Positions 41,491-54,082 of a DNA stretch of 64,000 nucleotides are shown here, one piece after another. The position numbers were made by a program, and so were the translations under genes. Origin of the DNA: a virus; the IMG/VR virus record IMGVR_UViG_3300036893_000049, positions 21,260 to 85,259 of that record; one strand, 5' to 3'. The first letter of the stretch is position 1, and each line of letters starts with the position of its first letter. The notes under the pieces were generated by a model. That model had not been told where the DNA came from. It searched no databases and worked only from the letters and a program-made list of their open reading frames with translations.

Positions 41491-41982
41491 TCATACCGCC
41501 CCCATCTTTCTCAAAAAATCCCGGGCGACCTCCGCGACCGGCAGCGGGTGAGTGGCCCCCTCCGCTACATCCGGCTTGCTCCGGTCCTTAGCCGTATGCT
41601 CGATCAGACCAAGTATCGATTGTTCCCGCAACGCTTCACGCAGTGCAGGTGGCGAAATGTCATTGGCCTTGGCGAGACCATTAGATATGGTACGAAATCC
41701 CCGCCGCGCCTGACTACGAATACGGGCACGAGCCGTTTGACCGATTTTGTGCAGATCGTCAGGAACGACGCGTTTATATCCAACACGGCGCACGGAAGCG
41801 AATACCGCGCCATTTTCTCGTTCAACGACAAAAATCGCGCGATAAAGAAGATACCGGCATACGTTAATGTTCCGGCCGATTGCCTTACTGAAATCGTCGA
41901 ATGTCAACGTTTCGCCAAAAGGACAAGCGGCGAGAAGGTCCGCGAGGATGCGGGTGTCCTGGTGTAACTCCATGACGATCAT
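41491..41982 (-). CDS. hypothetical protein with winged-helix-like N-terminus, downstream of array B
   Basis: AGGAG RBS at the end of array B; GETLTFDDFSKAIG...SVRRVGYKRV. Confidence 0.7.
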   Translation of the reverse strand: MIVMELHQDTRILADLLAACPFGETLTFDDFSKAIGRNINVCRYLLYRAIFVVERENGAVFASVRRVGYKRVVPDDLHKIGQTARARIRSQARRGFRTISNGLAKANDISPPALREALREQSILGLIEHTAKDRSKPDVAEGATHPLPVAEVARDFLRKMGAV

Positions 41983-41999
41983 GGGAAGGCTCCTGTATT

Positions 42000-42074
42000 G
42001 TGTCGTGCTGTGCGGTGGTGTGGCGTGACGTGTCGTGCGGTGCCGTGGTGTGGAGTGGTGTGCTGTGGTGTGAT
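42000..42074 (-). repeat. array B: 15 units of invariant CAC plus variable NN (GTG-NN on +)
   Basis: + strand NN series: TC CT CG GT GC AC TC CG CC GT GA GT CT GT AT; GTG intact in all 15 units. Confidence 0.95.
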
Positions 42075-42080
42075 GATTTT

Positions 42081-42122
42081 GGCAGTCCCAACAGAAGCGA
42101 GAACGATTCCGTTGGGATTGCC
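42081..42122 (-). other. long hairpin 5' of array B
   Basis: GGCAATCCCAACGGAATCG-TTCT-CGCTTCTGTTGGGACTGCC. Confidence 0.8.
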
Positions 42123-42128
42123 GATGAT

Positions 42129-42143
42129 GTGCCGTGGCGTGGT
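42129..42143 (-). repeat. mini-array of 3 GTG-NN units right after the Cas7-like stop codon
   Basis: GTGCC GTGGC GTGGT. Confidence 0.7.
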
Positions 42144-42144
42144 A

Positions 42145-42738
42145 TCATGCAACCATCTGGCGATTATCCTGCCAGACCAGTTTATCCAGAACGAAGCGGC
42201 CATTGTGACCGCCATTTTGTGGCCGGAACTGGCCGATTCCAATAAAGAGGCCAGCAAGTTCCACCATGTCCCGGAAAACGGGCTCGACGATGATCGGGTC
42301 CAGGATGATGATTTCGAATGTCGATGACCATTCCCGAACCACGGGAAAGCGGCGCACGACTCGTTTGCCTGAACCCCGGACACCATCGGCGTTGGCTGAG
42401 ATCGTAACCATCATCGCCTCTGAGGGATCGATATTCAGGATTGGTGCGGCGGGGATCATCACGCCGCTGGTGAACTTGGCGGACCATGTGGCCTTCCCCT
42501 GGCCCGGGATTTGGATTTTTGAATATTTCGCCGCCGCGATCAGGCATTGGTGAAAACCGTGCGGTGGAATAATGATGGTTTTTTTGCCGTCGTGTTCCTC
42601 GATGGACAATTTGCTACGCCATGTCCTGGCGTCATAGGCATCTGGCGACTCGCCTTCGAGCCGCGGGTCATTGTGTTGCCGGGACTGACTGTACGGCGCG
42701 GTGCCACGGAGGGTCAGTTGAGCGATGGTGTATTGCAT
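42145..42738 (-). CDS. stand-alone Cas7/RAMP-like RNA-binding protein
   Basis: N-terminal strand QLTLRGTAPY; IIIPPHGFHQCLIAAA resembling the RAMP IPxxxxKG helix; C-terminal G-rich loop AGLFIGIGQFRPQNGGHNGRF; no other cas genes in the window. Confidence 0.75.
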   Translation of the reverse strand: MQYTIAQLTLRGTAPYSQSRQHNDPRLEGESPDAYDARTWRSKLSIEEHDGKKTIIIPPHGFHQCLIAAAKYSKIQIPGQGKATWSAKFTSGVMIPAAPILNIDPSEAMMVTISANADGVRGSGKRVVRRFPVVREWSSTFEIIILDPIIVEPVFRDMVELAGLFIGIGQFRPQNGGHNGRFVLDKLVWQDNRQMVA

Positions 42739-43348: not shown

Positions 43349-43762
43349 GTGACCAGTATCTGGGGCAAACAGGAAAAACAGTTCAGATTGCACCGGGCAC
43401 AGAACGGCCTTTGCGCGCTGTGCGGAGATGACCTGAAACTGGCCGAGGCGACTTTCGATCACATCATCCCGAAGTCGAAACACGGGCCTTCAACGATTGA
43501 TAACCTTCAACTGGCACATAGATCGTGCAACAACAAGAAGGGCGATAAGATTGTCGCGCCGCTCCAACTATCGGGGAAAATTCGCAAGCGCGTGTTGCAC
43601 GCGCTGGTGATGGAGCGGCTTTGCCGTCGAGACATTGACGAACGAAAGGGAAATTATATAGTTGATTCCCTTCGGCAATCTGGTAATATTGCCGGATCGG
43701 GTGGCGCTACCAACGCCAGTCCCGATCCTGACCTCGACGGAAGGTTACTCCGCGTTGGCTGA
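43349..43762 (+). CDS. HNH endonuclease; C-terminus altered by the insertion at 43649
   Basis: CALCG...TFDHIIPKSKHG...DNLQLAHRSCNNKKG. Confidence 0.9.
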   Translation: MTSIWGKQEKQFRLHRAQNGLCALCGDDLKLAEATFDHIIPKSKHGPSTIDNLQLAHRSCNNKKGDKIVAPLQLSGKIRKRVLHALVMERLCRRDIDERKGNYIVDSLRQSGNIAGSGGATNASPDPDLDGRLLRVG

Positions 43763-44942
43763 CCCTATCGTAGCGACTCAGATGCTCACATGGAAGTGTC
43801 GTTTGCTCCCAAGCAAAGGCCAGCATGACAAATTGCGCGCTGCACTAAGCCATACCCGCGACCTCTACAATGCCGCCTTGGCTGAGCGCATCGACTGTTA
43901 CCGGAAAACCGGCAAAGGGCGCTCTTTTTTCGACCAGGCTAAGGGCCTTACCGAACTCCGCGCCGATCCGGGCTGGGCAACCTATTCTGTCGCCATGCAA
44001 CGCTGGCCGCTGAAACAAGTCGATCTTGCCTTCGCCGCCTTCTTTCGACGCATCAAGGCGCGGGACGGAAAAGCCGGATTTCCGCGATTTCGGGGCCGCG
44101 AATGGTTCAAGACGTTCGGTTTTTCGGATCGCGGCGGCTGGCGCGTGGACGGCAACCGGCTGCGGCTGAAGGGCATAGGGTCTGTTCGTATTCACCTCCA
44201 TCGCCCCCTCCCTTCTGTGCCAATCGCCTGTAAGGTGAAACGCGAGGGCCGGAATTGGTATGCGCTGCTGACCGTCGAGACGCCTTGCGCGGCCTTCCAC
44301 CCCGGCCCGGCTGTCGGAATCGACATGGGCATCACGACCATGGCGGCGCTTTCGACCGGCGAACTGATCGCCAACGCACGCCCAGTCAAGCGGGCTGAGA
44401 GAGAAATGCGGAGACGCCAGAGACAGATCGCGCGATGCAAGAGAGGATCGAATCGTCGCCGCGAGGTCAAGGCGCGGGTGGCATCGCTGCACGCCAAGAT
44501 CACCCGGACGCGCGAAACGCATCTGCATCAGGTGTCGGCATCGCTCACGGCCCGGTTCGGCACGATTGCCATCGAGAAGTTGAACGTCAAGGGCCTGGCT
44601 GGCGGAATGCTCGCCAAGCAGGTCAATGACGTTGCATGGGGTCGCTTCATAGGTATGCTGCGCTATAAGGCTGCAAGGGCCGGTGGCACAGTGATTGAGG
44701 TTGATCCTCGCGGAACAAGTCAGACCTGCCCTGAGTGCGGCGTCATCAAGAAAAAGGAACTCTCGCAACGCGTCCACCGATGCGATTGCGGCTGTATCCT
44801 TGATCGCGATGTCGCCGCTGCGAAGGTCATTCTAATCCGGGCCGGGAATGGTCCGGGAGGCCGCAACGCTGGTGCTACAAGGCGTGGTCTCGAAAAGATA
44901 TGCGAGGCTGCCTGATGTCAGGTAGTCAAGTATATAATTCCC
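43649..44942 (+). mobile_element. non-autonomous element with IS1595-type ends carrying only tnpB
   Basis: 17-bp TIRs GGAAATTATATAGTTGA / GGGAATTATATACTTGA (15/17 identical); AACGAAAG duplicated at 43641-43648 and 44943-44950. Confidence 0.85.
43755..44915 (+). CDS. tnpB: TnpB RNA-guided endonuclease (copy 2); TTG start inferred
   Basis: LYNAALAER, GFPRFR, GIDMG, IAIEKL, TSQTCPECG, CDCG, DRDVAAA. Confidence 0.95.
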   Translation: MADPIVATQMLTWKCRLLPSKGQHDKLRAALSHTRDLYNAALAERIDCYRKTGKGRSFFDQAKGLTELRADPGWATYSVAMQRWPLKQVDLAFAAFFRRIKARDGKAGFPRFRGREWFKTFGFSDRGGWRVDGNRLRLKGIGSVRIHLHRPLPSVPIACKVKREGRNWYALLTVETPCAAFHPGPAVGIDMGITTMAALSTGELIANARPVKRAEREMRRRQRQIARCKRGSNRRREVKARVASLHAKITRTRETHLHQVSASLTARFGTIAIEKLNVKGLAGGMLAKQVNDVAWGRFIGMLRYKAARAGGTVIEVDPRGTSQTCPECGVIKKKELSQRVHRCDCGCILDRDVAAAKVILIRAGNGPGGRNAGATRRGLEKICEAA

Positions 44943-44958
44943 AACGAAAGGAAACACC

Positions 44959-45252
44959 GTGAGCCAGACCACAATCCAGCCCCCCACACCCGCCCCCGTG
45001 CAACCTCCGGGCCTGTTTCAGTGGGTCAGGAGCCGCTTGTCCGAGGCCAGCACATGGGGCGGCATCAGCGCCTTCGCGGCGGCCATGGTGACGCAGGTCC
45101 CGGCCAGCGTGCAGCCTTATATGCTGGGGCTGTCTGGTGCCGCGGCGGCGCTGGCCGTCGTGATCGCGGAAAAGGGCAGCAGCCGGACGCCGGCACAGAT
45201 CGCGGCCGATGCGCTCGCGGCGGCGCAAGAGGCGGATAGGTTGAGGTCGTGA
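44959..45252 (+). CDS. holin-like two-TM protein
   Basis: RLSEASTWGG motif; two hydrophobic segments; upstream of the putative endolysin. Confidence 0.65.
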   Translation: MSQTTIQPPTPAPVQPPGLFQWVRSRLSEASTWGGISAFAAAMVTQVPASVQPYMLGLSGAAAALAVVIAEKGSSRTPAQIAADALAAAQEADRLRS

Positions 45253-52704: not shown

Positions 52705-53691
52705 TCACGCCACCTTGGCGCGTTGCCAGTAGCCGCAGAAATCCACGCTCGGACGGCACGCCATGGCCAGCCCCGTGATCTGCTGGACCTGCCGCCCGTT
52801 GTCGAGCCGCCGATGATCCTCCCGCCACGCCATTTCCTGGGCATACCGGATCAGATATTGGCCCGCGATGTGGTGATGATGGCCGATTTCCGCCCGGCGC
52901 ATCCGAGAGAAGAAAGACTCCGCGCCGTTCGTATAGGTCCCCGTCCCGGTGCTGTAGAGTTGGCTGTGGTCGATCCGGGAGACCTCATACCGGGCGTGAA
53001 GGTCGTTCCAGCTTGGCGCTTCGTCTGCCATGAGGGTCGAGTCCTTGCGGACGCGGGACCGAATCCATGACGTGGCGGCGGCTTCCGTCTTGAACACAGC
53101 CGGGAGGGTGCGCCCGCCACGCTCGCGGACCACGACCACCACGCGGCGCTTGCCGTTCTGGTTCTTCGCCAGCCGCCGGTCCCGCCGATTCTCTTTGTGG
53201 TTCGCGGGCTTGATGTAGCCGCCGAAATACCCGCCATCGGTCTCGACCGTCTTGCCTTCGCCGCCGATCTGCATCCCCTTCAATTCGGACGCCATCGCCT
53301 CGCGGATTTTGTGGGAAAGGACGAACGCGGTCTTGTATTGCACGCCCAGGTCCCGGCTCAGTGCCAACATGCTCTTGCCCTTGACCTCGTTCACGAAGAT
53401 CGCGACCGCCGCGAGATAGTTGCGGAGGGCCATCTTGTGATGGGCAAAGAGGGTGCCGCTCGTGATGGAAAACGACTTCCGGCACGCCTTGCAGCGCCAG
53501 CGCGGCGCACCGTTCGCCTTGCGGCAGTCCCAGACAATCTCGCAACCACAATGCACACAGACCGGTCGGCCATCGGTATCGTGCCAGCGAACTGCCATGA
53601 AGGCTTGCTCGGCTTCCTGGTCCGTCATCCGCATGACCTGGGTCAGGGAGAGGGTCCGGGCGCGGGAGGAAAGGAGGAAGTGAGATGACAT
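52705..53691 (-). CDS. IS1595-family DDE transposase
   Basis: Zinc ribbon CVHCG/CKAC, HTH, VETDGGYFGG, LMADE, TNGAESFFSR. Confidence 0.95.
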   Translation of the reverse strand: MSSHFLLSSRARTLSLTQVMRMTDQEAEQAFMAVRWHDTDGRPVCVHCGCEIVWDCRKANGAPRWRCKACRKSFSITSGTLFAHHKMALRNYLAAVAIFVNEVKGKSMLALSRDLGVQYKTAFVLSHKIREAMASELKGMQIGGEGKTVETDGGYFGGYIKPANHKENRRDRRLAKNQNGKRRVVVVVRERGGRTLPAVFKTEAAATSWIRSRVRKDSTLMADEAPSWNDLHARYEVSRIDHSQLYSTGTGTYTNGAESFFSRMRRAEIGHHHHIAGQYLIRYAQEMAWREDHRRLDNGRQVQQITGLAMACRPSVDFCGYWQRAKVA

Positions 53692-53775
53692 TACCGTATT
53701 CCGCAATTTGATGTCGGAATTGATAATGTCGCAGAATGCTCTTGTCAACAAGAAAATGCGTATTATGATAACTCA

Positions 53776-54036
53776 TTGTCGGATTTTGGAGGCGGTATGG
53801 GTCTCGCGGCTACGGAGGCGGAACTGGCGGACAAAGCGCGCCGGTTCATCAAAGCCGAACTGAAACGGGCGGATGTGACCTATGAGCAGTTGGCCGAACG
53901 ACTGAAGGCCCATGGTCTCGTGGAAACGAAGGCTTCTATCGCCAACAAGCTGAGCCGGGGCACGGTGGGAGCGACATTCTTGTTAGCTACATTGGCCGTC
54001 CTCGGAAAAGACGGGTTGTGGTTGGCAGACCTGTAA
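53776..54036 (+). CDS. DUF6471-like HTH protein divergent from the transposase
   Basis: KAELKRADVTYEQLAERL...SIANKLSRG. Confidence 0.85.
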   Translation: MSDFGGGMGLAATEAELADKARRFIKAELKRADVTYEQLAERLKAHGLVETKASIANKLSRGTVGATFLLATLAVLGKDGLWLADL

Positions 54037-54082
54037 AAACAGGCATTATCCCCTGGATTCAATCAATCCAGGGGAGCGGAAG

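Follow-up and report, generated by a model that had tools for sequence, protein, structure and literature searches.

How does a tnpB gene come to lie between terminal inverted repeats and a short duplication of its target site, when elements of the IS200/IS605 and IS607 groups, as an earlier note made from the sequence alone had pointed out, have neither inverted repeats nor duplications (PMC13565253)? The locus that raises this question belongs to a soil phage and was studied in a window of 64,000 nucleotides, corresponding to bases 21260-85259 of the 85,259-bp IMG/VR virus record IMGVR_UViG_3300036893_000049, which has direct terminal repeats and is estimated to be complete. The element occupies positions 43649-44942 of this window (1,294 bp), is bounded by terminal inverted repeats (TIRs) of 23 nt, and contains tnpB as the sole gene between its arms. 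In our reading, which we hold with considerable confidence, it is a non-autonomous cut-and-paste element of the IS1595 family, with ISNwi1-like ends, where an OMEGA module (tnpB and its omega-RNA) has replaced the transposase gene.

The left TIR (43649-43671, plus strand, GGAAATTATATAGTTGATTCCCT) is 83% complementary to the right one (44920-44942, minus strand, GGGAATTATATACTTGACTACCT as reverse complement), and a repeat search returned the pair as the longest inverted repeat of the region. The arms match at 19 of 23 positions overall and at 15 of the first 17, so the 17-bp repeats counted in the earlier note were correct for that stretch of what are longer arms. Directly outside them lie two exact copies of AACGAAAG, one at 43641-43648, abutting the left repeat within the final codons of an HNH endonuclease gene, and the other at 44943-44950, just as that note had described. 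The next base is a G on either side, so that 9 bp would be possible from this copy alone; the length of the target-site duplication (TSD) is set at 8 bp because the sister copies discussed below fix it. A 12-nt end motif occurs twice in the 64-kb window, both times at these ends, and the cassette is present once in the 85,259-bp phage genome. Used as a query, the element DNA found nothing among phage records and, among plasmids, short matches of about 70% in two of them.

The interrupted gene (43349-43648, plus strand) encodes a phage HNH endonuclease (Pfam HNH, 4.9e-15; PHROG HNH families) whose HNH domain is intact, the displaced part being the last three codons. In-silico deletion of 43649-44950 gives an HNH open reading frame (ORF) of 103 amino acids (aa) ending in DIDERKETP, and its restored stop codon TGA (44960) overlaps the GTG (44959) of the following ORF as GTGA. 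The insertion is therefore precise, and the restored ERKETP-stop with its GTGA overlap, on which the earlier note had based the same claim, is reproduced. The duplication also preserves the ribosome-binding site of the downstream gene. The product of the latter is a small protein of 97 aa with two hydrophobic segments; the name holin that had been given to it is without support, as searches against Pfam and PHROG gave no match.

Which family do these ends belong to? The end consensus of the ISNwi1 subgroup, which we take to be ggnnatTAT in ISfinder, is compatible with GGAAATTAT and GGGAATTAT. A scan of viral contigs with the end motif GGRAATTATATASWTGA matched at least 119 stretches, and all counts of pairs and loci given from here on are those among the matches listed. 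The shared pattern is GGGAATTATATA[CG]nTGAnTCCC, and the window ends fit 15-16 of its first 17 positions. Most motif-bearing contigs have 52-70% GC, and for this reason such an AT-rich 17-mer is not attributable to chance. The matches form 31 inverted (+/-) pairs spaced by 285 bp to 3.5 kb, with perfect 8-bp duplications in 22 and, according to tblastn, an IS1595-family transposase of about 305 aa in roughly 20; one transposase element tested by Pfam contains DDE_Tnp_IS1595 (7e-40) and Zn_ribbon_IS1595, while the pairs 285-545 bp apart are gene-less miniature elements. Moreover, 50 of 120 motif loci have an IS1595-family transposase within 2.5 kb. Duplications of usually 8 bp, a zinc finger together with the DDE_Tnp_IS1595 domain, and passenger genes in some members are features of the IS1595 family (Siguier, Gagnevin and Chandler 2009, as summarised in PMC8101967), in agreement with the 8 bp or so that the earlier note had attributed to it. 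No tnpB lies within any of the 31 listed pairs, a hidden Markov model search of the 120 listed loci found just two unrelated TnpB genes, both outside any end pair, and none of these pairs or loci holds an element with both an IS1595 transposase and tnpB.

The window element, with only tnpB between its ends, has no zinc-finger and DDE_Tnp_IS1595 transposase of its own. Having the ends and the footprint of the IS1595 family with no transposase inside, it is therefore a non-autonomous derivative that needs an enzyme in trans, and not an insertion sequence in the strict sense. This is what the earlier note had proposed for tnpB, as cargo of a cassette moved in trans, and the ends shared with some 20 transposase-bearing elements bear it out; movement by a trans-acting IS1595-family DDE transposase is strongly supported by these comparisons of sequence.

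In other phages, further genes are also found as passengers between the same ends, namely C5 cytosine DNA methylases (L120:5962-9470, L084:108-2383 and L150:67-2308) and a PAPS-reductase-domain protein (L078:1971-3852), from which it seems that phage-borne transposons may spread anti-restriction functions.

That the cassette belongs to a family that has transposed is indicated by its sister copies. Protein-guided scans found the same TnpB (67-82% identity) in four more viral contigs and in several metagenome contigs, which provided seven sister cassettes with readable ends, or eight cassettes with the window copy. All sister cassettes end on the right in ...GTCAWGTATATAAWTCCC and most begin on the left with GGRWWTTATATASTTGA, so that their boundaries, far from being unrelated to these TIRs, are the same. 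Three of them, at different sites, have 8-bp duplications of their own (AAATGATA in L015, CTCCCTAA in L009 and CTCCGGAA in L008), which are the further copies with different duplications that the earlier note had suggested looking for. As judged from these junctions and that of the window copy, four independent insertions with 8-bp TSDs show real transposition by a staggered-cut enzyme. An 8-bp direct repeat in a further copy, L013 (CTCGCGAC), was discarded as chance, the alignment placing its left repeat further upstream. Additional scans with the exact left end and with the conserved 3' motif returned one contig each; the former holds an IS1595 element that is truncated, the latter a cassette already in the set.

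More distant relatives of this TnpB, at about 60% identity, lie between a pair of 19-nt inverted repeats of another sequence (84%; one arm is GGTGGTGCCGCAGTTTGAA) in L018:1-1226, L019 and L020, contigs that end within the elements, where duplications are unreadable. The whole TnpB clade may ride on more than one kind of DDE-type ends.

The cargo itself appears to be an intact and maintained nuclease gene. The tnpB gene occupies 43755-44915 on the plus strand if it starts, as it probably does, at the TTG at 43755 (386 aa), the ATG at 43782 giving 377 aa; the TTG is preceded by GGAAGG, and in the sister copies the start lies one codon before a conserved GTG. The product has the Pfam domains HTH_OrfB_IS605, OrfB_IS605 and Cas12f1-like_TNB, and scores 247 bits with the NCBIfam model guided_TnpB (NF040570; cut-off 100), 194 bits with IS200_TnpB (below its 425-bit cut-off) and 131 bits with IS607_TnpB (below its 350-bit cut-off). 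Among solved structures it matches the ISDra2 TnpB with E = 7.6e-40, and its GIDMG, AIEKL and DRD motifs align with RuvC motifs in the best match of known structure, a designed nuclease of 408 aa. This latter protein spans the same residue range as ISDra2 TnpB, and the equivalence of D181/E265/D343 in the window protein with the ISDra2 triad D191/E278/D361 is read by position. These three residues and a CxxC..CxC zinc finger are invariant across three copies, and among the eight copies the ratio of non-synonymous to synonymous substitutions (dN/dS) is 0.08-0.18, with saturated dS, a pattern from which TnpB is judged to be maintained under purifying selection. Metagenomes hold about 50 clusters of this protein at 70% identity or more, whereas the maxima of tblastn are 46% identity in plasmids and 42% in phages and a scan of genome contigs gave relatives of 49% at most; within the material searched, the family appears to be confined to phage and metagenome contigs. 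The nearest characterised relatives are IS605-type TnpBs of Deinococcus (42% identity), and remoter ones (36-42%; L028, L004) adjoin HUH TnpA genes.

An omega-RNA scaffold is predicted at 44770-44942 (plus strand), overlapping the 3' end of tnpB and reaching the last base of the element; as a whole, this element matches no Rfam family. The common fold of the last 180 nt of the eight copies comprises 54 pairs, with 96.5% of the cells paired, in helical regions at 44770-44819, 44837-44856, 44857-44891 and 44898-44935, and a pseudoknot in which the loop GGGAAU (44844-44849) pairs with the terminal AUUCCC (44937-44942). Compensatory changes on both sides are found in 20 of the 54 pairs; none of 500 shuffles matched this fold, slid partners paired at 35-48%, and the fold of the single sequence has z = -2.98. 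In helix 7 (44898-44935) the end of the coding region pairs with bases 44920-44935 of the right inverted repeat, which would provide the 3' stem as well as the pseudoknot strand of the RNA. Three of the eight copies have GGGAUU in the loop and AAUCCC in the tail; this compensatory exchange also turns an Asn codon of TnpB into Ile, and the corresponding pair of columns (90/184) is A-U in five copies, U-A in three and broken in none. Since the bases of the right repeat are paired in helix 7 and in the pseudoknot, we infer that the scaffold runs to 44942, the final base of the element, as in IS605-type TnpBs; the guide would then begin with the duplication, as AACGAAAG plus the right flank (AACGAAAGGAAACACC...). 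The right repeat, with this predicted RNA, has a dual role, being both a putative transposase binding site and a pseudoknot strand.

A carrier of the DDE type that leaves a TSD has consequences for the nuclease, because the first 8 guide bases would be those of the duplication and the target-adjacent motif (TAM) would have to be taken from a random left flank. In this regard, six of the eight cassettes have CG just 5' of the left duplication, at -10/-9 relative to the left repeat, where it is the most conserved flank dinucleotide (P = 4.5e-5 against a CpG background of 0.112; 0.033 when corrected for 46 positions x 16 dinucleotides). There is no mirror-image motif on the right flank of the eight cassettes, and among tnpB-less elements, either transposase-bearing or miniature, CG occupies the same position in 2 of 18, with flanks read by eye. 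Such a one-sided motif is the trace expected from selection by a TAM-dependent nuclease, and CG is a candidate part of this motif; with eight copies, it counts as a lead rather than a result.

A cycle for the cassette can be proposed from these elements. An IS1595-family DDE transposase from the host, from another element or possibly from the phage would bind both GGGAATTATATA..TCCC ends, excise the cassette and paste it into a staggered 8-bp cut, which in this insertion would have been made in the final codons of the phage HNH gene, with AACGAAAG left on either side. Transcription of tnpB would proceed from the left end, the 3' part of the mRNA would fold into the omega-RNA scaffold, taking its last stem and pseudoknot from the right repeat, and the guide would be read from the duplication and the right flank. 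The putative guide matches the empty site over its full length and the occupied left junction over about 9 nt, so TnpB would cut cassette-free copies, for instance in a co-infecting phage or at a donor site from which the cassette was excised, and repair by recombination would then insert a copy of it, with homing or retention as the outcome. A role of this kind has been demonstrated for IS605-type TnpB. A more ambitious version, which we offer tentatively, considers the cassette as a selfish element with two engines. The IS1595 transposase, possibly the repeat-less and regulator-linked copy of the phage itself, would place the cassette at new AT-rich 8-mers, and TnpB would cut cassette-free alleles in co-infecting phages where the left flank ends in ..NCG, so that the cassette would spread in the population in the manner of a homing endonuclease gene. 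Selection of this kind would have left the CG enrichment as its trace, and the right repeat would be constrained in both of its roles.

Which enzyme could act in trans? The window phage encodes an IS1595-family transposase at 52705-53751 (minus strand; PF12762 3e-37, PF12760, NF033547 133 bits), an intact gene with zinc-ribbon and DDE domains around which no inverted repeats were recognisable. A small helix-turn-helix-like gene on the plus strand (about 53798-54037; 52705-54037 for both) is transcribed divergently from it, and the two-gene module recurs in three other phage contigs (L168, 77% identity; L169, 72%; L170, 58%), with unrelated downstream DNA. It looks like a phage-resident transposase, possibly regulated or domesticated. 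A 139-aa ORF beside the transposase was considered as a homologue of the passenger ORF of the related plasmid insertion sequence and found not to be homologous.

The proposal that this transposase moves the cassette, the phage carrying a 'stationary' enzyme that mobilises non-autonomous cassettes and miniature elements, would refine the explanation given above without contradicting it, and we regard it as rather unlikely. Besides its intact domains and the conservation of the module, it can draw on G007, a module-bearing phage that shows no DNA resemblance to the 3 kb on either side of the window cassette and holds a 318-bp miniature element (L174:1501-1818) with ends of the GGGAATTATAT form, that is of GGGAATTATATA type, and an exact TSD, TTGTTTTT. 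Furthermore, G001, the phage of the cassette in L008 and thus a second TnpB-cassette phage, encodes an IS1595-family transposase (L031:1290-2420) of the clade that goes with cassette-type ends, 37-55% identical to those inside them, with one end recognisable but decayed (GTCAAGCCGATACTTCCC) and no duplication. However, the resident enzyme of the window phage is only about 30% identical to those between GGGAATTATATA ends. Its nearest insertion-sequence relatives (58-62%), on plasmids of Rhodovastum and Skermanella, have 8-bp duplications and ends that differ clearly (CGGTCTTATGTAGCA...), even if these ends agree with the cassette ends at 11 of 17 positions (xGGxxTTATxTAGxxGA). Moreover, G008 (93% complete) has the module gene and no such element, and G002 (92% complete) has the TnpB cassette and no IS1595 transposase; the flanks of the cassette showed no DNA similarity in G008 either. 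The co-occurrence of cassette and transposase is suggestive, without pointing to the acting enzyme, and shared hosts alone could explain it.

The distance of the resident transposase from those with matching ends, together with the different ends of its plasmid relatives, also weighs against trans mobilisation of the cassette as a whole, as do several further points. The window phage lacks a transposase whose ends match closely, and no second copy of the cassette was found in its 85-kb genome. No empty-site allele was found either: viral contigs scanned with the N-terminus of the HNH protein as pattern gave relatives of 49% identity at most, a similar scan with the downstream 97-aa ORF gave no relatives, and in a database of 5.8 billion proteins the only close match to the HNH protein was the window's own. 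With neither an empty site nor a second copy, recent mobility of this copy lacks support. In addition, four of the eight cassettes (L011, L012, L013 and L016) have no duplication and the left ends of L008 and L013 are degenerate, so some members of the family may be unable to move or may have been rearranged. The omega-RNA and its 3' end are predicted from covariation and folding, and the CG motif is two bases long, comes from eight copies and was spotted after the fact. As for homing, DDE excision leaves a double-strand break anyway, and the benefit of a homing nuclease is debated (PMC13565253). Several of these observations would be accommodated by a fossil, an old transposition whose cassette is now immobile and whose tnpB is kept for a benefit to the phage such as cutting competing phage genomes. 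The saturated synonymous divergence points to an old family, duplications are missing or left ends damaged in half of the copies, each phage has a single copy of the element, and the HNH gene is barely harmed, with the downstream ribosome-binding site retained. We nevertheless consider this improbable, as the window copy has an exact duplication and well-matched ends, three sister copies sit at different sites with exact duplications of their own, and the non-coding ends are conserved, although at the right end the omega-RNA imposes a constraint of its own.

Much less room is left for two other explanations. A scaffold ending near TAGTCA (44923-44928) would turn the last 14 nt of the right repeat into the guide and IS1595-type ends into the target; in its favour, there are hairpins over the 3' end of the gene, and a guide that is fixed would always have the same target, but 44920-44935 are paired in helix 7 with compensatory changes and 44937-44942 pair with the loop at 44844-44849, with the A-U to U-A swap in three of eight copies. 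We find this very unlikely and reject it, as those bases of the right repeat belong to the scaffold, in the manner of TnpB and Fanzor guide RNAs, where a pseudoknot directly precedes the guide (PMC10711439). The IS1341 group of IS200/IS605 elements has asymmetric hairpin ends and inserts 3' of a fixed tetra- or pentanucleotide, and IS607 elements have a serine-recombinase partner and end in GG. An ordinary solo tnpB of either type, IS1341-like and with the inverted repeats and the 8-bp repeat by coincidence, would agree with the IS605-type nearest relatives (the Deinococcus copies and the E value obtained with ISDra2 TnpB) and with the remoter ones that adjoin HUH TnpA genes. This is scarcely credible, because the ends are common to dozens of IS1595 transposase elements and 8-bp TSDs recur at different sites, both of which contradict a coincidence, and the presence of inverted repeats and a duplication places the element outside the IS200/IS605 and IS607 families, which have neither (PMC13565253). 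The non-autonomous IS1595-family cassette is the explanation retained here.

Altae-Tran et al. (2023, PNAS) described, in the main text of PMC10691335, six DDE-associated TnpB branches (DDE-1 to DDE-6) with inverted terminal repeats, as well as solo TnpBs with the same ends for which mobilisation in trans was proposed. As in those branches, tnpB lies here between the inverted repeats of a DDE transposon, with 27 bp from the 3' end of TnpB to the transposon end (within 250 bp in that paper), and, as in the solo TnpBs, the ends are common to transposase-bearing elements, implying mobilisation in trans. The difference is the partner, since IS1595 is unnamed in that main text, where IS630 appears, and a 2026 review gives ISL2, IS630 and IS1031 (PMC13565253). 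Papers naming TnpB and IS1595 together, taken mostly at the level of title and abstract, include none on such an association. TnpB in DDE transposons and solo TnpB moved in trans have thus been known since 2023, as presented in the main text of PMC10691335, and IS1595 as partner family is a new variant; specific to the present analysis are the double use of the right repeat, with covariation in the pseudoknot, the CG on one flank only, and a transposase module of the phage that has no recognisable inverted repeats.

With IS1595 insertion sequences the cassette shares inverted repeats starting with GG, 8-bp TSDs and the ends of zinc-ribbon/DDE_Tnp_IS1595 elements, whereas its sole gene is a predicted RNA-guided nuclease whose scaffold has absorbed the right repeat. 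With ISDra2, of the IS200/IS605 group, it shares the protein family and the order of the domains, with RuvC triad and zinc finger both intact, as well as an omega-RNA that overlaps the 3' end of the gene, extends to the edge of the element and has a pseudoknot ahead of the guide. The carriers differ: ISDra2 belongs to the single-strand HUH elements, which insert beside a fixed motif, whereas the present one, of DDE type, is cut and pasted as double-stranded DNA and has inverted repeats and a TSD. The closest parallel for the RNA comes from eukaryotic Fanzor elements in transposons with TIRs and TSDs (Yoon et al. 2023, PMC10711439), where the scaffold likewise takes in the inverted repeat and the duplication lies at the scaffold-guide junction; the present case differs in being a prokaryotic phage with an IS605-like TnpB and a non-specific 8-bp duplication.

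The exchange of carriers, by which an IS605-type TnpB and its guide RNA moved into the double-strand cut-and-paste IS1595 family in bacteriophages, is the prokaryotic counterpart of the move made by Fanzors in eukaryotes. Associations of TnpB with DDE transposases in prokaryotes are regarded as rare. One sequence would do two jobs, the last bases of the repeat serving as putative transposase binding site and as guide-RNA pseudoknot strand. If true, the one-sided flank motif would provide a direct test of whether a homing nuclease aids the persistence of a DDE element, an open question in PMC13565253. On a practical level, a compact (about 386 aa) and well-conserved TnpB with a defined scaffold end provides information for testing it as a programmable nuclease.

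Minor features of the locus concern the expression of tnpB and its surroundings. The 5' leader (43694-43758, plus strand) contains two hairpins, at 43694-43728 and 43732-43758, the second of which covers the GGAAGG ribosome-binding site; RNAalifold with seven copies gave 18 pairs, 9 of them with compensatory changes, and the hairpins could serve to control translation or derive from the left end of an IS605-type element. Within the left TIR there is a promoter-like TTGATT (43661-43666), followed 16 nt on by TAATAT, in a position conserved among copies. The pair scores 8/12, under the threshold of the promoter scan, which reported no promoter there, and an inward promoter is suggested by its sequence and position. 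Elsewhere in the window there is a second and unrelated tnpB of the same phage (4334-5560; 408 aa; PHROG 506 'transposase', with a Cas12f1-like_TNB domain), around which no inverted repeats were found. Finally, the ORF translations at 41867-42400 are highly repetitive on both strands, with runs like TPHH and TARH, which fits an array of short-period DNA repeats beside the 197-aa ORF at 42145-42738 (PHROG 4652, function unknown).

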